Of a stretch of DNA of 46,570 nucleotides, positions 5,422 to 17,681 are shown piece after piece. The DNA lies in the IMG/VR virus record IMGVR_UViG_2537562223_000006; one strand, given 5' to 3'. Position numbers and translations under genes: made by a program. Position 1 is the stretch's first letter, and each line of letters starts with the position of its first letter. The notes beneath the pieces are model-generated. The model searched no databases. It worked only from the letters and a program-made list of their open reading frames with translations, and was not told the origin of the DNA. Source of the stretch: a virus. Its lineage: Duplodnaviria; Heunggongvirae; Uroviricota; Caudoviricetes.

Positions 5422-5519
5422 CTTTCATTAATCCCTGAATTGTTGGTTAATACGCTTGAGGGTGAATGCGAATAATAAAAAAGGAGCCTGTAGCTCCCTG
5501 ATGATTTTGCTTTTCATGT

Positions 5520-5735
5520 TCACCGTTCCTTAAAGACGCCGTTTAACATACCGATTGCCAGACTTAAGTGAGTCGGTGTGAATCCCATCAGCGTTACCGT
5601 TTCGCGGTGCTTCTTTAGTACGCTACGGCAAATGTCATTGACGTTTTTATCCGGAAACTGCTGTCTGGCTTTTTTGATTTCATAATTAGCCTGACGGGCA
5701 ATGCTGCGAAGGGCGTTATTATGTTCTATTGTCAT
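5520..5735 (-). CDS. Small conserved early protein, lambda orf60a-like
   Basis: ATG at 5735 with GAGG RBS, coupled to the upstream gene stop; MTIEHNNALRSIARQANYEIKKARQQFPDKNVNDICRSVLKKHRETVTLMGFTPTHLSLAIGMLNGVFKER. Confidence 0.6.
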   Translation of the reverse strand: MTIEHNNALRSIARQANYEIKKARQQFPDKNVNDICRSVLKKHRETVTLMGFTPTHLSLAIGMLNGVFKER

Positions 5736-5742
5736 ATTGGCC

Positions 5743-6495
5743 TCACACTTCGAATGCCAGTTGAGGGGTAAAGACGTCCCGTTCAGCGTTGTAATTAAGT
5801 GAACTGGCACTGTTGAATGATTCAATGCGTTCCACAAGAACTTGCGTACGGGTTTCTTTACTTGCGGGAGCATATGGCGAACCTACCCAGGATTTGTCGA
5901 TGCCTATATTTCTTGCGACGTTCGTGCTGTCTGCAGACGAAAGCGGTACATGAGTAAAAATGTCTTTATTTAACATCCGTAACCCATGAATCTTGGTGAT
6001 TGGGTAGCCGTACTGATCTACAACATGACGTATAAGATCGCGTAGTTTAGCCCGACACGCTCTCGGTCGTTTTGCATCGTATTCCCCCATCGAGCCGATG
6101 CAGACGCGGGGAAACTCATGGCACAGACGAATAAATCGCTCATCTGGTTCGTTCATGTGCCACACCGGAGCACCAATAAATTTACCGTGAGGCCATGCCG
6201 CAATCAGGGCGTCATTCTCTTCACTGGTTCCGCCGATAACATCCGGGATAACCGCGAATGAGAAACGAGGGTGATTGCCCCAGCGTTCAACAAATCTGTA
6301 ATATTCATTCCAGTCTACGGCCTTGTTTTTTGTCCAGAATGTGAATGCACCATTATCAAGAGCAAATGATTGGGTGACTTCGGAAGCCAGATCAATCTGA
6401 GCTGGATTAGCAAAACTGATGAATGCGTGTCTGCCTTTCCAGGCTTTCAACGCACAGGTATCGGGAGTTATTGGACCACCGTGAAAATGAATCAT
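5743..6495 (-). CDS. Hypothetical early protein, 250 aa, unknown function
   Basis: Uninterrupted ORF (MIHFHGGPITPDTCALKAW..) in the leftward operon directly downstream of exo; no family confidently recognised. Confidence 0.6.
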   Translation of the reverse strand: MIHFHGGPITPDTCALKAWKGRHAFISFANPAQIDLASEVTQSFALDNGAFTFWTKNKAVDWNEYYRFVERWGNHPRFSFAVIPDVIGGTSEENDALIAAWPHGKFIGAPVWHMNEPDERFIRLCHEFPRVCIGSMGEYDAKRPRACRAKLRDLIRHVVDQYGYPITKIHGLRMLNKDIFTHVPLSSADSTNVARNIGIDKSWVGSPYAPASKETRTQVLVERIESFNSASSLNYNAERDVFTPQLAFEV

Positions 6496-6646
6496 ACACT
6501 CTCCCGTTTATTATTTATCTCCTCAGCCAGCCGCTGGGCTTTCAGCGGATTTCGGATAACAGAAAGGCCGGGAAATACCCAGCCTCGCTTTGTAACGGAG
6601 TAGACGAAAGTGATCGCGCCTACCCGGATATTATCGTGAGGATGCG

Positions 6647-7327: not shown

Positions 7328-8109
7328 GCTGCCACCTTCTGCTCAGTGGCTTTCTGTTTCAGGAATCCAAGAGCTTTCACTGCTTCGGCCTGTGTCAGTT
7401 CTGACGATGCGCGAATGTCGCGGCGAAATATCTGGGAACAGAGCGGCAATAAGTCGTCATCCCATGTTTTATCCAGGGCGATCAGCAGAGTGTTAATCTC
7501 CTGCATGGTTTCATCGTTAACCGGAGTGATGTCGCGTTCTGGCTGACGTTCTGCAGTGTATGCAGTATTTTCGACAATGCGCTCGGCTTCATCCTTGTCA
7601 TAGATACCAGCAAATCCGAAGGCCAGACGGGCACACTGAATCATGGCTTTATGCCGTAACATCCGTTTGGGATGCGACTGCCACGGCCCCGTGATTTCTC
7701 TGCCTTCGCGGGTTTTGAATGGTTCGCGGCGGCATTCATCCATCCATTCGGTAACGCAGATCGGATGATTACGGTCCTTGCGGTAAATCCGGCATGTACA
7801 GGATTCATTGTCCTGCTCAAAGTCCATGCCATCAAACTGCTGGTTTTCATTGATGATGCGGGACCAGCCATCAACGCCCACCACCGGAACAATGCCGTTC
7901 TGCTTATCAGGGAAGGCGTAAATTTCTTTCGTCCACGGATTAAGGCCGTACTGGTTGGCGACGATCAACAATGCGATGAACTGCGCATCGCTGGCATCAC
8001 CTTTAAATGCCGTCTGGCGAAGAGTGGTGATCAGTTCCTGTGGGTCGACAGAATCCATGCCGACACGTTCAGCCAGCTTCCCTGCCAGCGTTGCGAGTGC
8101 TGTACTCAT
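7324..8109 (-). CDS. bet: Lambda Bet (Red-beta single-strand annealing protein)
   Basis: 261 aa, [66 protein letters not shown]..; 4-nt overlap with exo as in lambda. Confidence 0.97.
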
Positions 8110-8114
8110 CCGTT

Positions 8115-8411
8115 TTATACCTCTGAATCAATATCAAACTGGTGGTGAGCAATGGTTTCAACCATGTACCGGATGTGTTCTGCCATGCGCTCCTGAAACT
8201 CAACATCGTCATCAAACGCACGGGTAATGGCTTTTTTGCTGGCCCCGTGGCGTTGCAAATGATCGATGCATAGCGATTCAAACAGGTGCTGGGGCAGGCC
8301 TTTTTCCATGTCGTCTGCCAGTTCTGCCTCTTTCTCTTCACGGGCGATCTGCTGGTAGTGACGTGCCCAGCTCTGAGCCTCAAGACGATCCTGAATGTAA
8401 TAAGCGTTCAT
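8115..8411 (-). CDS. gam: Gam (RecBCD inhibitor), short GamS-length form
   Basis: 98 aa [60 protein letters not shown]..; the upstream frame hits a TAA with no start codon, so no long-form N-terminus. Confidence 0.93.
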
Positions 8412-8486
8412 GGCTGAACTCCTGAAAATGGCTGTGAAAATATCGCCCGCGAAATGCCAGGCTGATTAGGAAAACAGGAAAGGGGA

Positions 8487-8777
8487 TTAGTGATTGAGGC
8501 CGTTACCGCGTCCGTCGAGAAAAACTTCCACGAGCAAATCACGGGTATAAGTGCGCTCGATGCCGCGATGCAGATAAAGCCGTCCGCGTAAATTAGCTGA
8601 TGCAGTCCAGGTACCATCTTTGTGTTTGACCAGCATTCCTGGCATGACCGCACCGCGATTAACGGTCTGCGTTCCGTAATGTTGATGAACCATAAAAACT
8701 CCTGCCCGTAAGCTGGGCTGCTGAACATATAGAGACTTCTGCGCGTATTCAGGCGGTGGATGGCCGCCGGTTGTCAT
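8487..8777 (-). CDS. Hypothetical early protein in the kil/cIII position (96 aa from ATG 8777; frame stays open to a TTG at 8897)
   Basis: ATG at 8777 with GAGG RBS; [35 protein letters not shown]..; first gene downstream of the putative PL. Confidence 0.5.
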
Positions 8778-8939
8778 AACTAAGCCGCCTCGTTGAAGCG
8801 ACTGAGGTATAAAGTGTTGTGTTGATTTCAGCTGGTCACACCGACGTTCACGCGTCCGTTTCACCCCTCGCACTCCCCGAAGCCTGCTGAAATTCAAACT
8901 GCGGATCTAAGCGGTCATCGCAACGGTGAAACAGGTGGT

Positions 8940-9060
8940 TACCGTATCGTTGTGTCGTTGCGATGAATTTATTTAAAACTATAGTTGTTTTATCGTCAAC
9001 AACAAAAGTTGTTTTGTCGGTTGTTCTAAATATAACTGGTTGTATTTAGGATGGATTTAT
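8940..9060 (-). promoter_or_regulatory. Putative OL/PL: leftward promoter (-35 TTGACG at 8994-8999, -10 TTAAAT at 8971-8976, 17-bp spacer) embedded in GTTGTT/AACAAC operator palindromes
   Basis: gtcAACAACaaaaGTTGTTttgtcgGTTGTTc repeats; architecture mirrors the OR/PR region (TTGTTGAC..AACAAC.ATAGTTTT). Confidence 0.55.
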
Positions 9061-9124
9061 TTTGTGACTTGCATCGCATAGCGATAACTGAAGTGAGGTG
9101 TGGTGGTTTTTTGGACGGTATGAG

Positions 9125-9165
9125 TTATGAGGGGGAGGAAAAGAAAACCCGGCGCGGTTGCCGGG
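9125..9165 (-). terminator. Rho-independent terminator downstream of the lipoprotein gene (end of cI-lipoprotein transcription unit)
   Basis: Hairpin CCCGGCGCGGTTGCCGGG (9148-9165); on the reverse strand it is followed by TTTTCTTTTCC. Confidence 0.7.
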
Positions 9166-9173
9166 TATGATTA

Positions 9174-9554
9174 TCAGTCAGCCCAACCTGATTTCGAGTT
9201 TATTTGGGTTTCTGACATTGTGTATTTCTTAATCGTGTCATCGTTAAAAAGAATAGTAAGTTCTTTTTTCGTACCGTTCGTTCCATTATGGAATAATCCA
9301 TAGAATGGAATAAAAGTGGTGCCATTAACTTTTACTTTTGCAAAGGCGTACTTCCAGATCTCGTTTCCACTGTCAGTATATGAAACAGCATCAGGAGAAC
9401 CAAAGTAAGATTTAACCTCATTCTTGGTTGTTTTACCTTCCTGAAGTTTAGACTGGACACTAATTTCAGTTTCATTTTTGAGTTGCTGGTTGCCTGAAGA
9501 AGCACACCCAGCCAATACAGATGCCATCATGGCAGCGATTAGGATTTTTCTCAT
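9174..9554 (-). CDS. Lipoprotein (BamE/SmpA-OmlA-like fold suspected), AT-rich moron downstream of cI in the rexAB position
   Basis: Signal peptide with lipobox (MRKILIAAMMASVLAGCASS); 126 aa; same strand as cI and downstream of it; low GC by eye. Confidence 0.75.
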   Translation of the reverse strand: MRKILIAAMMASVLAGCASSGNQQLKNETEISVQSKLQEGKTTKNEVKSYFGSPDAVSYTDSGNEIWKYAFAKVKVNGTTFIPFYGLFHNGTNGTKKELTILFNDDTIKKYTMSETQINSKSGWAD

Positions 9555-9783
9555 TTTATGTTTCCATTCATTATAATCAGAAACATCTTAACATAATGAT
9601 TCGAAATAAAAACCGCTACGAGATAGGGGGACATTTTGCTGACAGTAGCAACAAATCTCAGCTAACAACGAGAATATTTACTGAAATATGCAAACAGATT
9701 TGGCGTTCTTATAGAGAATTTAGTGCAATATCTAATCCGAGTGGTATAAACCTTAACCTTCGCTCCCTTAAGTCGTAGATAAA

Positions 9784-10473
9784 TTAACCATGCTTCCTGT
9801 ACGTCTGCGGCATGCTTCCAATGACCTTACCGAATATGAACACCCGGTTCATCTCGTCTTTCCCGATCGGGTCCCACGGCGAGTAGCTCTTGTTATCAGA
9901 GATAACCAGCAGCTTATCCTTCATCATTTGAAGACGTTTTACATGGGCAGTGTCGTCGTACAGAAACGCATAGATGCCATCACCGTCGAAAGATTTAACA
10001 GTGATATCAACGAACAGCAGGTCACCTGGTTCGATCGTCCCTGACATGCTGTCACCTCGCACGTTAATGATGCGGATATTTTCCGCCTTCCTGCCATCGA
10101 ACATGTGACGAGCATCGTCAAACGAGTACTCAACCGAGCGTAGAACTTCTACAAACTCACGGTTGATTACACCTGGCCCGGCACTGACTTCTATATCAAG
10201 AACGTCAATTTTGAAGTATTTGGAATGGCTGACAGTTGATTGTATTGGTTGCACTGTACTGTCTGACATATTTCCAACGCCAGAAGATAACCATTCTGCG
10301 CGCACACCCAAAGCGTTCGCGATCTCCACGATTTTAGTTGTTTGGTTAGCTTTCCCTGTTTCGATTTTCTGAATAGCAGCCTGGCTAACCCCGACCAAAT
10401 CCCCAAGCGCCTTTTGTGTAAGGCCTCGCGCTAATCTGGCTTCTTTAAGTCTTTCTGAGAGTGTTGTTTTCAT
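9784..10473 (-). CDS. cI: CI-type prophage repressor (N-terminal XRE HTH + C-terminal S24 LexA-like autopeptidase domain)
   Basis: 229 aa; HTH (LTQKALGDLVGVSQAAIQKIETGK); peptidase motifs GDSM and KR; divergent from cro across an operator/promoter region; leaderless-type start. Confidence 0.9.
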   Translation of the reverse strand: MKTTLSERLKEARLARGLTQKALGDLVGVSQAAIQKIETGKANQTTKIVEIANALGVRAEWLSSGVGNMSDSTVQPIQSTVSHSKYFKIDVLDIEVSAGPGVINREFVEVLRSVEYSFDDARHMFDGRKAENIRIINVRGDSMSGTIEPGDLLFVDITVKSFDGDGIYAFLYDDTAHVKRLQMMKDKLLVISDNKSYSPWDPIGKDEMNRVFIFGKVIGSMPQTYRKHG

Positions 10474-10577
10474 AGATCAAATGTACAACCAAGGTTTTAT
10501 TTCATCAAACGAAAATGGTTGTTGACTAAAAACAACCATAGTTTTAATCTTGATTCGGATTAACCACGGAGGTTGTT
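10474..10577. promoter_or_regulatory. OR region: PR (-35 TTGACT 10522-10527, -10 TAATCT 10545-10550), candidate PRM on reverse strand (-35 10503-10508, -10 10480-10485), operator palindrome ATGGTTGTTgactaaaAACAACCAT (10515-10539)
   Basis: Perfect 9-bp-arm inverted repeat overlapping the -35; 17-bp spacers; GGAGG RBS before cro ATG; near-leaderless cI start on the reverse strand. Confidence 0.65.
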
Positions 10578-10808
10578 ATGAACCCAGCAATCAAAACAGC
10601 GATCAATATCGTTGGTTCACAAAAGAAACTAGGCGATGCCTGCGAAGTTTCACAGCAGGCCGTCTATAAGTGGCTTCACAACAAAGCAAAGGTATCCCCT
10701 GAACATGTCGGCAGCATTGTTACGGCTACTGGTGGAGTTGTGAAGGCATACCAGATTCGCCCGGATCTTCCGAAGTTGTTTCCACACACCGAAAAGAACG
10801 CAGCTTAA
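10578..10808 (+). CDS. cro: Cro-like HTH repressor (YdaS/DUF1019-type)
   Basis: 76 aa; HTH (LGDACEVSQQAVYKWLH); divergent from cI across the operators. Confidence 0.8.
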   Translation: MNPAIKTAINIVGSQKKLGDACEVSQQAVYKWLHNKAKVSPEHVGSIVTATGGVVKAYQIRPDLPKLFPHTEKNAA

Positions 10809-10820
10809 ATTTCCATTTCA

Positions 10821-10834
10821 CGCTCTTTAACAAT
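10821..10834 (+). promoter_or_regulatory. boxA-like element (CGCTCTTTAACAAT) downstream of cro; possible nutR-type antitermination site
   Basis: Matches the rrn/lambda boxA consensus (GCTCTTTAACAA) by recall; no obvious boxB hairpin follows. Confidence 0.4.
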
Positions 10835-10877
10835 AAGCAATCAACTTAACAGTCAATTCAAACTAAAGGAGTCAATT

Positions 10878-11417
10878 ATGCAACCACTTACATACCAACA
10901 GACTAGCGGATTTATTCCGACTGCGGTGATAAATCGTTCTCAAACAAAACAAGCTCCAGGCCACGAAAAAATCCGTGATGCCGTCCGCGCCTGGTCGGCT
11001 GTAGATAATCAGGATGTCGTTGCCGCACTCATTGTGAATGAGTATCGGGAGCAGGGCGACGGCATCATCGATTTCCCTGATGATGTCAGCCGTGCACGCC
11101 AGAAGCTGTTCCGCTTCCTCGATAACAAATTCGATTCTGAAAAATACCGAAATAACGTGCGTGAACTGACCCCGGCAATTCTGGCGGTACTACCGCTGGA
11201 ATATCGCGGTTACCTGGTTGAGCAGGATAGCTTCATGACTCGGTTGGCTGAAATGGAAAAGGAACTCAGTGAGGCAAAACAGGCTGTCATTCTCAACGCA
11301 CCACGCCACCAGAAACTGAAGGAAATGAGTGAAGGTATTGTGTCGATGTTTCGTGTGGACCCGGATCTGGCTGGTCCATTAATGGCGATGGTGACCACCA
11401 TGCTGGGGGCAATATGA
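10878..11417 (+). CDS. Regulatory protein in the cII position (YdaT/CII-like family suspected)
   Basis: 179 aa; AGGAG RBS; motif LTPAILAVLPLEYRGYL resembles YdaT-like proteins by recall; sits between cro and O. Confidence 0.5.
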   Translation: MQPLTYQQTSGFIPTAVINRSQTKQAPGHEKIRDAVRAWSAVDNQDVVAALIVNEYREQGDGIIDFPDDVSRARQKLFRFLDNKFDSEKYRNNVRELTPAILAVLPLEYRGYLVEQDSFMTRLAEMEKELSEAKQAVILNAPRHQKLKEMSEGIVSMFRVDPDLAGPLMAMVTTMLGAI

Positions 11418-11503
11418 CAGGTTCAGAAATGGCGAAAGTCGGTCTGCGGGAACAGAACCGACTTTCAGGTGCAAATCGTAACACACTCATTGCGGGAGGA
11501 ATT

Positions 11504-12433
11504 ATGGCAAACACTGCTGAGATATTCAATTTTCCAGTGCCGGATGCGGCACAAAAGGAGCCGCGCGTGGCAGATCTCGATGATGGTTATACGCGCATTG
11601 CAAATGAGTTGCTGGAAGCTGTGATGCTGGCCGGATTAACACAGCACCAGCTTCTGGTCTTCCTGGCTGTCATGCGCAAAACATATGGCTTTAATAAAAA
11701 ACTGGATTGGGTGAGCAACGAGCAACTTTCCGAGTTGACCGGGATATTGCCGCACAAGTGTTCTGCTGCAAAAAGTGTTCTGGTAAAGCGTGGGATTTTT
11801 ATTCAGAGCGGGCGGAATATCGGCATTAATAATGTGGTCAGTGAATGGTCAACATTACCCGAATCAGGTAAGAAAAATAAAGTTTACCTGAAAGAGGTAA
11901 ATTTACCTGAATCAGGTAAGAAAAGTTTACCCAAATCAGGTAAAGGCACTTACCCGAATCAGGTAAACACAAAAGACAAACTAACAAAAGACAATATAAA
12001 ACCTTATTCGTCCGAGAATTCTGGCGAATACTCTGACCAGCCAGAAAACGACCTTCCTGTGGTGAAACCGGATGCTGCGATTCAGAGCGGCAGCAAGTGG
12101 GGGACAGCAGAAGACCTGACCGCCGCAGAGTGGATGTTTGACATGGTGAAGACCATCGCGCCATCAGCCAGAAAACCGAATTTTGCAGGGTGGGCCAACG
12201 ACATCCGCCTGATGCGTGAGCGTGACGGGCGTAACCATCGCGACATGTGCGTTCTGTTCCGCTGGGCCTGCCAGGACAACTTTTGGTCTGGTAACGTGCT
12301 GAGCCCGGCCAAACTTCGCGACAAATGGACCCAACTCGAAATCAACCGTAACAAACAACAGGCTGGCGTGACAGCCGGAAAACCAAAACTCGACCTGACA
12401 AACACAGACTGGATTTACGGGGTGGATCTATGA
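11504..12433 (+). CDS. O: Replication initiator O (lambda O family)
   Basis: Start MANTAEIFNFPVPDAAQKEPRVADLDDGYTRIANELLEAV.. parallels lambda O; internal ori iterons; GGAGG-like RBS; 4-nt overlap with P. Confidence 0.9.
   Translation: MANTAEIFNFPVPDAAQKEPRVADLDDGYTRIANELLEAVMLAGLTQHQLLVFLAVMRKTYGFNKKLDWVSNEQLSELTGILPHKCSAAKSVLVKRGIFIQSGRNIGINNVVSEWSTLPESGKKNKVYLKEVNLPESGKKSLPKSGKGTYPNQVNTKDKLTKDNIKPYSSENSGEYSDQPENDLPVVKPDAAIQSGSKWGTAEDLTAAEWMFDMVKTIAPSARKPNFAGWANDIRLMRERDGRNHRDMCVLFRWACQDNFWSGNVLSPAKLRDKWTQLEINRNKQQAGVTAGKPKLDLTNTDWIYGVDL
11860..11970 (+). repeat. ori iterons: five ~18-bp direct repeats (TTACCCGAATCAGGTAAG type) inside O, followed by an AT-rich tract
   Basis: ttacccgaatcaggtaag / ttacctgaaagaggtaaa / ttacctgaatcaggtaag / ttacccaaatcaggtaaa / ttacccgaatcaggtaaa, then acaaaagacaaactaacaaaagacaatataaaa. 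Confidence 0.85.
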
Positions 12434-13914: not shown

Positions 13915-14946
13915 ATGTCCTCGAATATTTTACCTGATGAAAAAGTAATCAATAAAATTGCTGAAAAGTTGAGCGATTATAAATATCCTCCGGCTGAAGG
14001 TATGAACTCTGAACATGTCAGCAAATGGATTAAGCAATTTGCAGTGGAGGATAGACGATTTATCTTAGATGAAACGCTTTATCTACTTAATGCAGGTTAC
14101 CTGTCCGAAAGTCAATATCAACGAAAAATAAAAGCCATTGCAAGAAGTGAAAAGAACGCGAAATTGTTCAGATATGCAGGTTTTTTAGATATTCAAAAAA
14201 AAGGTTCTAGTCAGAAGGAATTGCTTAAATCTCTTTATGAAACAGTAGGGATCAAATTTAACATCGTTACTGAATCATCAACTCAAGATGAAGTAAATAA
14301 ATTTGATACATTTGTATATATTGATGATGTGTCGTTTTCAGGAGAAAAGGCCATCAAATCGATAAGTAATTTTGTTATAAAATTTAATTTAAGAGATATT
14401 AAAGTCAATGTATATTTTTTTTCATCTCATACGTTATCTGACTATAATATAAAAAGACGATTAGAATATATTTTTAAGGATAGAAATATTTTTGTACACG
14501 TGAAGAATGGTGGTATGCGTGAGGTTGAAAACCGAAAAAGTCGTTCTGCTCAATCAGGTGTTTTCTGGCCAAGGAAATATAGTGTAGATACTCCCGAGAA
14601 ATTCGAGGAGTGTGAGCTTTACAAAGGCGTATTCAGAGATGGATATGCCTCTTCTGATAGTTTTAGAAATGAAGCCTCAAGGGATCGTTTCGAATCTATC
14701 CTTACTAAAGTCGGCTTTAATATCTTGCTGCACAGGAAAACCCCTAGTGAGGTGCTCAAACCTCTAGGTTTTTCTACTTTTGACGGTTTGGGTTTTGGGG
14801 GAACAACATTTACTTATCGAAATTGCCCGAATAATGTGCCGCTGGCTTTTTGGTGGGGAGATTATGAACCAACAGGTGCTCCCGCATTGGACTGCTGGTA
14901 TCCACTAATGAAGCGGAATGGGTATAATGAGTGGTATGAGCTATAG
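13915..14946 (+). CDS. Hypothetical 343-aa protein with a possible phosphoribosyltransferase-like PRPP-binding motif (FVYIDDVSFSGEKA); AT-rich moron, gene 1 of a two-gene cassette
   Basis: Long ORF in low-GC DNA; AGGA RBS; motif is a partial match to the hhhhDD..(S/T)G.(S/T) PRTase signature; C-terminal half unassigned. Confidence 0.55.
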   Translation: MSSNILPDEKVINKIAEKLSDYKYPPAEGMNSEHVSKWIKQFAVEDRRFILDETLYLLNAGYLSESQYQRKIKAIARSEKNAKLFRYAGFLDIQKKGSSQKELLKSLYETVGIKFNIVTESSTQDEVNKFDTFVYIDDVSFSGEKAIKSISNFVIKFNLRDIKVNVYFFSSHTLSDYNIKRRLEYIFKDRNIFVHVKNGGMREVENRKSRSAQSGVFWPRKYSVDTPEKFEECELYKGVFRDGYASSDSFRNEASRDRFESILTKVGFNILLHRKTPSEVLKPLGFSTFDGLGFGGTTFTYRNCPNNVPLAFWWGDYEPTGAPALDCWYPLMKRNGYNEWYEL

Positions 14947-15547
14947 ATTATATCCGCTACAGAACACAGTTTCCTTCAGGAAAACCACCGAAAAATGGGG
15001 GGGGCTTTCCAACATGGCTAAAGGGTATCCATTGTTAATCAATGGGTTGCCTATTCAATCAAGTGAAATCCTTTACCAAGCATGCCGATATCCAGACTAT
15101 CCGGATATACAAAAGGCCATCATTACTCAAGGAAACCCCTATGAAGCCAAGCAGACCGCAAGATCGTTTGAATCCAAAACTCGCGCAGGATGGGATAAGA
15201 ATCGAGTTTCGATTATGAAGTGGTGTGTATGCGTAAAATTATGCCAGAACTGGGATACGTTCTTTGCGCTGTTAGACAGTACAGGCGACCATTTCATCGT
15301 GGAACACTCAGAGAAGGACCAATTCTGGGGTGCCAGTAAAGACCCAGAAGGTAACTATTATGGTATGAACGTATTAGGGCGAATTCTCATGGACGTGAGA
15401 GGGGTTGCTAGGAAAAAGGGGGCTGATGGGTTTGCAACAATACCATCGCTATCTTTGGACAAATTTTTTCTCCTAGGCGAGAGAATTAAAGATGTAACAT
15501 TTGTAGAGCCAACGCCTGGAGCAGGGCAAAGTTTATCCTTGTTTTAG
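14927..15547 (+). CDS. NADAR-family protein (YbiA-like, DUF1768; N-glycosidase / ADP-ribose-processing fold), gene 2 of the cassette
   Basis: GGLSNMAKGYPLLINGLPIQSSEILYQACRY and IVEHSEKDQFWGASKDPEGNYYGMNVLGRILMDVR parallel the recalled E. coli YbiA motifs; start overlaps the upstream gene stop. Confidence 0.75.
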   Translation: MSGMSYRLYPLQNTVSFRKTTEKWGGLSNMAKGYPLLINGLPIQSSEILYQACRYPDYPDIQKAIITQGNPYEAKQTARSFESKTRAGWDKNRVSIMKWCVCVKLCQNWDTFFALLDSTGDHFIVEHSEKDQFWGASKDPEGNYYGMNVLGRILMDVRGVARKKGADGFATIPSLSLDKFFLLGERIKDVTFVEPTPGAGQSLSLF

Positions 15548-17212: not shown

Positions 17213-17297
17213 AGTCAGAGATAACAATCAACTAATACTGTTTTGTTGATTTTTGCTTGTAATTGGCGTTCTGGTCTGATTTTTGTGGAGTAAGTTG

Positions 17298-17681
17298 ATG
17301 CGTGATATTCAGATGGTTCTTGAGCGTTGGGGAGCGTGGGCGGCTAATAATCATGAAGATGTGACCTGGTCGTCCATTGCCGCCGGTTTTAAGGGATTAA
17401 TTACTTCAAAAGTAAAATCTCGCCCGCAATGTTGTGACGATGACGCGATGATCATTTGCGGGTGCATGGCCCGTCTGAAAAAGAACAACAGCGATTTGCA
17501 CGATTTATTAGTAGATTATTATGTAGTCGGTATGACATTCATGTCACTGGCAGGTAAGCATTGCTGCTCTGATGGTTATATCGGGAAAAGGTTACAGAAG
17601 GCTGAGGGCATAATTGAAGGGATGTTAATGGCATTAGATATCCGGTTAGAGATGGATATCGTTGTTAATAACTCTAATTAA
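17298..17681 (+). CDS. Q: Late-gene antiterminator Q, small Q21/QuuD-type
   Basis: 127 aa from [33 protein letters not shown]..; Cys-rich ([12 protein letters not shown]); last gene before the late regulatory region. Confidence 0.8.

Follow-up and report, generated by a model that had tools for sequence, protein, structure and literature searches.

A conserved leader core occupies the position of putL in a lambdoid prophage lineage without an N gene

The stretch of DNA analysed here (the window; 46,570 nucleotides (nt) of the IMG/VR record IMGVR_UViG_2537562223_000006) is a lambdoid prophage with 99.8% identity to Escherichia phage PhiR26_1 over an 801-bp query (8400-9200). On its minus strand the block of OL operators and early-left promoter PL is followed by a gene-free stretch, then by kil, gam, bet, exo and further genes, ending at int (Table 1). 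The interval 8778-9060 comprises the OL/PL control region and the 5' part of an untranslated leader of about 270 nt that precedes kil-gam-bet-exo. An initial annotation had noted that an N-like antiterminator gene is missing after PL and proposed either a non-canonical early antitermination or a divergent N in the next gene. The former suggestion is plausible, but the best-supported features of the leader are a conserved core (8825-8893) and a hairpin, P3 (8780-8806), and not the 10-bp repeat or the boxA-like sequence that had been highlighted. Judged by its sequence, the leader consists of three modules, namely M1 at the 5' end, a middle cassette of about 125 nt and M3 in front of kil. The core lies within the cassette, is conserved far beyond its surroundings and sits in the slot of put, the RNA element whose left copy in HK022, putL, is located just 3' of PL and needs no partner for its action on RNA polymerase (PMC9378689).

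Table 1. Features of the early region of the window, with coordinates, strand and the evidence or details on which each entry is based.
Feature	Coordinates	Strand	Evidence or details
Terminator-like sites in early-left operon	5481-6586	-	terminator scan; putative function
kil, 68-aa core, FtsZ-inhibitor family	8487-8693	-	PHROG 294, E 2.4e-38
gam	8115-8411	-	
Small pre-kil hairpin and Shine-Dalgarno sequence	8699-8718	-	hairpin GCCC-AGCUUAC-GGGC (8704-8718); AGGAG (8699-8703)
UUAUGA and P4	8752-8777	-	nucleotide conservation; ATG 8775-8777, first two U 8778-8779
P4	8752-8768	-	GGCGG 8764-8768, invariant loop CCAUCCA 8757-8763, CCGCC 8752-8756
Hairpin P3	8780-8806	-	covariation; 12 bp, CUCAGUCGCUUC-AAC-GAGGCGGCUUAG, one conserved mismatch
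Arginine-rich open frame upstream of ATG 8777	8778-8897	-	includes possible micro-ORF, GTG 8864, (M)KRTRERRCDQLK..
Middle cassette, putL slot between M1 and CAUACC-P3	8816-8944	-	four-way alignment and flank-anchored scan
Conserved core	8825-8893	-	97 loci and predicted fold; outer stem 8886-8893 / 8825-8832, inner hairpin 8833-8865
'boxA-like' CGCUUAGA of the initial annotation	8906-8913	-	judged not boxA
5'-terminal hairpin of PL transcript	8916-8964	-	arms 8956-8964 / 8916-8924, 30-nt loop
M1, first 20 nt of transcript	8945-8964	-	local alignments; AUCGCAACGACACAACGAUA
OL operators and PL promoter	8971-9049	-	sequence; analogy with HK639-annotated PL
PL -10 TTAAAT	8971-8976	-	
PL -35 TTGACG	8994-8999	-	
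Lipoprotein moron, position of lambda rex	9174-9554	-	own intrinsic terminator 9147-9166
CI-like repressor	9784-10473	-	
cro	10578-10808	+	followed by a 179-aa CII-like gene, O and P, all rightward
boxA CGCTCTTTAACAA	10821-10833	+	13/13 consensus; 13 nt after cro stop, nutR position
Q	17283-17681		

The OL block contains palindromes of the AACAAC/GTTGTT type and an inverted repeat (9026-9036 / 9039-9049). Alignment with the PL annotated in HK639, whose description here rests throughout on its GenBank annotation, and with sister phages and contigs places the transcription start at about A8964, and the leader therefore spans the distance from 8964 to the start of kil. PL was not listed by a promoter consensus scan because its -10 element lacks the A at position 2. 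Scanning the region revealed no convincing antisense promoter or terminator, and no intrinsic terminator was found by a terminator scan between PL and kil.

The core corresponds to positions +72 to +140 of the PL transcript, just downstream of the early promoter of a phage without N. In 97 loci the part from 8825 to 8874 is almost invariant: its single common polymorphism, A8859G, turns a predicted A-U pair into G.U, and the pair is kept. The flanks vary, with about 15 non-singleton polymorphic sites in the 90 nt upstream and nine in the 45 nt downstream, and the near-invariance of 8825-8874 recurs in a Kil-anchored sample. Nucleotide diversity over the 97 loci is 0.031 for the cassette, 0.047 and 0.053 for the third codon positions of kil and gam, respectively, and 0.004-0.005 for the first and second positions of kil. 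The 75 nt from 8822 to 8896 fold better than shuffled sequences (z-score -2.05; seven of 200 shuffles were equally good) into a predicted 8-bp outer stem around an irregular hairpin of ten pairs, with three 1x1 mismatches and the loop CGUGAA; the rare variants A8888G, A8885T and C8824T keep or add pairs in the outer stem. With a covariance model of the core (R2), the window gave a single match, and other lambdoid loci of N type, put type and short-leader type, about 1 Mb in total, gave no match. A second copy of the leader or of the core was not found in the window.

The position of the cassette can be retraced in sister phages. One example is contig L122, in which the TTGTTGTTGACGATAAAACAACTATAGTTTT operator/promoter block of the window is combined with an HK639-type putL between M1 and CATACC-P3. 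Another example is L079, which has the type-B operators, the second type in the lineage, and carries an HK639-type putL in the same M1/CATACC-P3 slot; operator and leader types, two of each, occur in all four combinations. A scan based on the flanks only retrieved at least 111 window-type and at least nine put-type loci, with no third allele among the matches listed. Flanks separated by 75-104 nt were not found, and gaps of 136-165 nt yielded only a variant with a 5-nt duplication. The cassette measures 129 nt in the window versus 122 nt in its put counterpart. Between the put-type sister loci and the window the identity of the genes is 70-78%, thus indicating relatives from other hosts rather than recent recombinants.

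Blastn searches of Kil loci from diverse genera and of phage records, together with flank-anchored scans, revealed no cassette outside the Escherichia lineage, and only M3 and the first 20 nt of the leader are shared beyond it. Within the species the distribution is wide: a 193-nt leader is present in 2210 of 5426 complete E. coli genomes with 90-100% identity and nearly always as one copy. Its carriers include O104:H4 2011C-3493 and strain 536, and PGAP annotates nothing beneath it. Among named phages the leader was matched in PhiR26_1, Perceval, 4A7, Turner and others.

The initial annotation had recommended a comparison with HK022-type put elements. A pattern search of viral contigs supplied put elements, and 18 of these were used for a covariance model (R1). 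As controls, R1 scores HK022 putL at 98 bits, HK022 putR at 75.5, HK639 putL at 90, the element of Enterobacter phage CobraSix at 97 and those of two Siccibacter prophages (L222, L228) at 99.7. The best hit of R1 in the window, with filters off, reached 10.4 bits (E 0.58) within a structural gene and none fell into the leader; the pattern search found no put either, and R1 was negative for PhiR26_1 and Perceval. put itself is nearly invariant across genera. The comparison proved informative: by covariance model the leader is not put, but it occupies the putL slot and has a conserved core. Rfam gave no relevant match for 8000-12000 at E values up to 10, nor for 18 related loci at gathering thresholds; however, it has no put family and reports nothing for put of HK022, and its negative result is therefore uninformative on put-like elements. 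For lambdoid phages without N the authors of earlier studies assume a put mechanism (e.g. PMC12315714). For the lineage of the window such a mechanism is excluded at the level of sequence.

The statement that no N-like gene follows PL was confirmed. Searches of ten open reading frames (ORFs) of the early region, including all those of the left operon, against PHROG profiles identified Kil, DksA/TraR-like, queuine tRNA-ribosyltransferase-like, CI, Cro, CII-like and Q proteins and no N, with a sensitivity for N that is limited by the great diversity of N families. The annotation of PhiR26_1 carries no N. Between PL and kil the only ORF of at least 30 amino acids (aa) on either strand is the extension of the kil frame, and no other plausible small ORFs were seen in the leader on either strand. 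A nut site was not found in the leader, which has no boxA at up to two mismatches and no short hairpin of boxB type in the predicted folds. By its sequence the lineage is thus one without an N gene, without nutL/boxB and without put RNA.

The ORF described initially (8487-8897, minus strand) does open at TTG 8897, contains the in-frame ATG 8777 and encodes ..SRLRGVRGVKRTRERR.., but the 96-aa gene proposed from ATG 8777 could not be upheld. Kil homologues of phi80, HK225, HK639, Klebsiella phage RCIP0034 and Salmonella phage SEN34 comprise 68-73 aa and indicate ATG 8693 as the start of the core protein. The alignment with six homologues begins at M8693, AGGAG lies 5 nt upstream of ATG 8693, and the PHROG 294 match covers residues 60-136 of the 136-aa ORF, for which Kil was the only match and no N profile appeared in the extension. 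ATG 8777 is part of the UUAUGA motif described below and is in frame with kil in the window lineage by chance. In GenBank, this kil gene (window 8487-8906; L001 4088-4465; L002 4088-4507) is annotated with 68, 125 or 139 aa, and one record names it 'membrane carboxypeptidase'; the long annotations treat the conserved RNA leader as coding sequence.

All sequences quoted in the initial annotation were recovered at their coordinates. At the 5' end of the transcript, the inverted repeat (CATCGCAACG, 8916-8925; CGTTGCGATG, 8956-8965) is real and can be lengthened to 11 perfect bp, its arms being separated by 30 nt; among 500 dinucleotide shuffles of 8778-9060, a single one reached 11 bp and four reached 10 bp. 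The resulting hairpin begins at the first transcribed base. Its tenth pair is restored as A-U in four loci, and the type C relatives lack its 5' arm. It probably shields the message from 5'-end-dependent decay. Between the immunity types A and B homology begins at about +1, and M1 is homologous to the 5' ends of the PL transcripts of phi80, HK225 and HK639, the score of the latter being reached in none of 300 shuffles. The idea of a structured leader holds for sub-elements only: compared with shuffles, the z-scores are -0.27 for 280 nt and -0.25 for 150 nt, and only the 5' hairpin, the interval 8822-8896 and, by covariation, P3 stand out. The boxA-like CGCTTAGA (8906-8913) was rejected as boxA, as only its first four bases fit and it does not match the consensus YGCTCTTTAACAA at up to two mismatches.

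M3 starts at CAUACC (about 8810) and comprises P3, the invariant UUAUGA and P4, followed by a small hairpin that adjoins the kil Shine-Dalgarno sequence. In 22 diverse sequences P3 shows two-sided changes in eight of its 11 pairs; pairing is retained in 92.9% of the cells versus 77.5% in column shuffles (reached in 0 of 500), and the covariation score is 0.478 versus 0.183 for shuffled columns and at most 0.111 with slid partners. The outer pair of P4 is A-U in one sequence and G.U in two. Across three reading frames relative to the AUG, P4 is kept at the nucleotide level; what is conserved is hence a signal in the RNA or DNA rather than a peptide. The motif (8752-8806 in the window) is also found in L126 (3465-3526), L127 (3524-3551), L004 (33109-33155) and more than 60 viral contigs. 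In phi80, HK225, HK639, CobraSix and dozens of put contigs M3 is located just after the intrinsic terminator that ends the first PL unit. For the P4 homologue of HK639 the sole annotation is that of a terminator; the phi80 record M11919 applies the label 't-L1 regulatory signal terminator' to a region that begins inside P4, and in JX871397 the M3 homologue lies between tL1A and the rho-dependent tL1B. No Rfam family matches P3-UUAUGA-P4, which we regard, on the basis of covariation, as a new candidate for an RNA family. By eye, a motif (A)ACGUUCCG..GCC-loop-GGC..A-rich..GAGG that contains a small hairpin beside the Shine-Dalgarno sequence is also seen in prophages from many genera of Enterobacteriaceae, directly 5' of whichever gene comes first in the early-left operon, kil or another; examples are the window (8699-8727, minus strand), L212-L227, L208 and L126, including the form GUUCCG..GCC-loop-GGC..GAGG.

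The right operon differs from the left one in its signals. The boxA downstream of cro is the only exact match in the window, and no boxB-like hairpin or boxC partner was seen after it. In put-type relatives (L346, L091, L104) the same boxA is followed by a boxB-like hairpin of the type GGCTGAATTATCAGCC, which suggests that Nus factors act on the right arm.

Our tentative interpretation, and the most probable of the readings considered here, is that the core of the cassette may be a cis-acting RNA that is not homologous to put but takes over its role. It is suggested by sister phages with matching PL operators, which hold putL in the slot bounded by these flanks, and by the tendency of lambdoid mosaic genomes to retain functional analogues at fixed positions. 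The interpretation is further based on the retention of put elsewhere in the same PL-cassette-M3 architecture, on the homology of M3 to part of a mapped terminator region and on the terminator-like sites that lie downstream in the operon. One of them (6564-6586, minus strand) is located within the orf60a homologue, at the position of lambda tL3; the other (5481-5499, minus strand) is a strong hairpin of eight pairs that has a T-run and precedes both the DksA/TraR-like gene and int. In this model the core would be the first element transcribed from PL and would target either the RNA polymerase during elongation or the access of Rho, and transcription would then pass M3, which may be a barrier downstream of the core, and the terminator-like sites without a phage protein. 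In its most far-reaching form this proposal would make core 8825-8893 a second class of phage protein-independent, cis-acting antiterminator RNA, unrelated to put, which has taken the place of putL in a lineage found in about 40% of the sequenced E. coli, and P3-UUAUGA-P4 an undescribed RNA signal that marks the start of the delayed-early left operon in N-, put- and cassette-type phages; in this combination we consider it doubtful.

Several observations weigh against a put substitute. The case is built on position and conservation, and position by itself is no proof of function. In Citrobacter, Kluyvera, Enterobacter, Leclercia and Raoultella the leaders of Kil-first prophages measure about 80 nt; no N gene was found between their promoter-like sequences and kil in the roughly 330 nt read upstream of kil, and model searches of these loci of about 6 kb detected neither put nor the cassette, so that early-left antitermination is not obligatory in the group. 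In Perceval-type relatives the gap between cro and cII is 24 nt and leaves no room for nutR and tR1. The invariant core overlaps a possible arginine-rich micro-ORF, and the constraint could thus be on a peptide. The low gene identity of the put-type loci indicates that the replacement is old, and a loss of function followed by a new role for the cassette is conceivable. The whole leader is no stabler than shuffles, and the cassette outside the core evolves at about 60% of the rate of third codon positions and tolerates indels of 1 nt and 5 nt. RNAalifold revealed no two-sided compensatory change in the core among 34 leader variants, because the known copies are at least 94% identical, and the fold of the core therefore stays a prediction; moreover, the consensus fold of the whole cassette differs from the minimum free energy fold of the single sequence. 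The common polymorphism U8880C breaks a predicted third hairpin (8866-8882), which probably does not form.

The most probable alternative is a passive leader without processive antitermination, in which the nutL-N-tL1 segment would be gone and PL would run straight into kil-gam-bet-exo, with the 5' hairpin merely stabilising the message and the cassette representing a leftover spacer whose core is kept for a minor reason. Such a leader agrees with the lack of an intrinsic terminator before kil, the terminator that precedes M3 in HK225, phi80 and HK639 being missing in the window, with the short-leader Kil-first prophages, with the narrow cro-cII spacing of the Perceval type and with the unremarkable fold of the leader as a whole. 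It leaves unexplained, however, the near-invariance of 8825-8874 between variable flanks and the almost unchanged put of the sister phages in a PL-put-M3 arrangement that has no intervening terminator either, and terminator-like sites are present further down the operon; we consider it less likely than a put substitute. A 5' untranslated region of kil, in which the core and the M3 hairpins set Kil translation, RNase processing or Rho-dependent attenuation, is distinctly less probable. That kil, which encodes a toxic FtsZ inhibitor, is the first gene behind a long leader would suit such a role, as would the excess of C over G in 8744-8834 (C/G about 1.6), which resembles a Rho-loading site, the conserved P3 and P4 on either side of ATG 8777 and the small conserved hairpin at the kil Shine-Dalgarno sequence. 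However, M3 and the pre-kil hairpin are also found in phages in which the next gene is not kil, the cassette is distant from the kil ribosome-binding site, and the slot holds an antiterminator and not a translational element in the sister phages.

The remaining alternatives concern the nature of the conserved sequence. The core could be conserved as a peptide, namely a short arginine-rich, N-like RNA-binding peptide encoded by the micro-ORF that starts at GTG 8864 (M-KRTRERRCDQLK...). GGAG is located 8 nt upstream of the GTG, which is replaced by ATG in three loci; every stop or frameshift variant is situated 13 codons or more downstream and spares the arginine-rich start, third positions (8859, 8820, 8814, 8811) account for the four most frequent polymorphisms in codons 1-18, and RTRERRCDQ resembles RRRERRAEKQ of lambda N. 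The codons of KRTRERR are invariant in the 97 loci, but so are their third positions and the 10 nt upstream, and within the invariant stretch variation is seen at only one third position out of 13, compared with about 29% in kil. Third positions that are as frozen as the others favour a constraint on RNA. In addition, GGAG is weakened by G8875A in 17 of the 97 loci, the start codon is lost in one, the C-terminus is 20 aa long, frameshifted or fused to Kil depending on the locus, and neither a boxB-like hairpin nor an N profile match accompanies the frame. The N-termini of phi80 N and of the first gene of HK225 are unrelated to the arginine-rich peptide, and an N remnant was rejected on the same comparison. 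We regard the peptide as improbable. A fusion of N with Kil, from TTG 8897 or GTG 8864 to the kil stop, as had been envisaged in the initial annotation, is hardly credible. An uninterrupted frame exists in the window as well as in 49 of 81 Kil-anchored viral contigs, and some GenBank records list a 'Kil' of 125-139 aa. But it is cut off from ATG 8777 in 31 of the 81 (by a TAG stop eight codons before ATG 8777 in 26, by a 5-nt duplication in four and by the lack of the leader in one), and because of these breaks and the missing N profile match we rejected the fusion; the short Kil homologues and the conservation of P4 in three frames, which makes the linker RNA and not protein, argue in the same direction. 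It is also very improbable that the cassette is a true but highly diverged homologue of put. Both share the slot and a similar length, and by eye AGAUCCGCAGU resembles AGAUUCGGUCAGU and UCGGGGAGUGCGAGGGGU resembles UCGGGAGCGCGGCGGGU; however, global alignment of cassette and put scores like the shuffle control (z-score -0.4 to 0.15), the best local score was reached by 180 of 300 shuffles, the covariance model finds nothing with filters off, and put itself hardly varies across genera.

To our knowledge, lambdoid phages have only two established solutions for early antitermination, N with nut and put RNA. Our analysis documents that a lineage with neither is extremely common in E. coli and carries a conserved element exactly in the position of put. 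If the core modifies RNA polymerase, it would provide a second natural RNA for comparison with the put-polymerase structure obtained by cryo-EM; if it does not, the lineage exemplifies a lambda-like early programme without processive antitermination on the left arm.

Some further observations concern the neighbouring genes and related loci. The product of the moron at 9174-9554 has a signal peptide followed by Cys, and the gene is placed between cI and OL like lambda rexAB; the cargo at this site differs among relatives, and Perceval carries genes for a transmembrane protein and a 340-aa protein. The early-left operon of the window includes a 250-aa queuine tRNA-ribosyltransferase-like gene (5743-6495, minus strand; PHROG 887, E 4e-99), in whose place PhiR26_1 has orf61/orf63 homologues. 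In the nin region, two large ORFs of 343 and 209 aa (13915-15547, plus strand) have promoter-like and terminator-like sites on either side, and the matching region of PhiR26_1 holds the defence gene PD-lambda-1; the segment is possibly an island of defence or moron genes, which transcription from PR has to cross before it arrives at Q. Rfam isrB, an Hfq-binding small RNA, scores just over the gathering threshold in HK225 (L126, 4376-4473, minus strand) and in a Kluyvera prophage (L218, 3388-3485, minus strand), in both cases downstream of kil and on the strand opposite to the early-left genes. Two metagenome-assembled genomes labelled 'Bacillota bacterium' (L211) and 'Atopobium sp.' (L220) contain prophage kil regions of Enterobacteriaceae type with 100% and 85% Kil identity, respectively, which probably reflects binning contamination. 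Upstream of kil, L219 and L220 have operators that by eye are HK022-like (TGTACTATTGGTACTTTAC...) and a leader of about 80 nt without putL; if the likeness holds, HK022-type immunity is not tied to put.

In comparison with known systems, put of HK022 and HK639 is the closest counterpart of the window core in position: it lies just 3' of PL in a lambdoid phage without N, has about the same length, and its HK639-type putL is framed by the same flanks, M1 and CAUACC-P3, in sister phages with the same operators. Like the window element it is present as a single copy in the left operon only, according to the HK639 annotation, and has a conserved irregular stem-loop core. In contrast, the two share no similarity in sequence or model, the conserved two-stem structure of put is not seen in the window element, and put is near invariant across genera whereas the element of the window belongs to one Escherichia lineage only. 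An rrn-type boxA with Nus-dependent antitermination has its parallel in the right operon of the window, which carries CGCTCTTTAACAAT; 13 of its 14 bases (GCTCTTTAACAAT) match the rrn boxA. Unlike this system, the PL leader of the window has no counterpart by consensus search.

The N-nut phages lambda, phi80 and HK225 share with the window the layout of cI, moron, OL/PL and early-left recombination genes, and the perfect boxA at the nutR position corresponds to the lambda type, from which the window differs by the absence of an N ORF, of boxB, of a left boxA and of the tL1 hairpin. With phi80 and HK225 the window has in common the first 20 nt of the PL transcript and M3, which belongs to their post-tL1 region. 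The tL1 region of phi80 has a homologous P3-UUAUGA-P4, in which the 28 nt from UUAUGA through P4 are identical and the differences between the P3 stems are compensated. In phi80, M3 comes after N and an intrinsic terminator and before a rho-dependent terminator, whereas M3 of the window follows the cassette directly and precedes kil.

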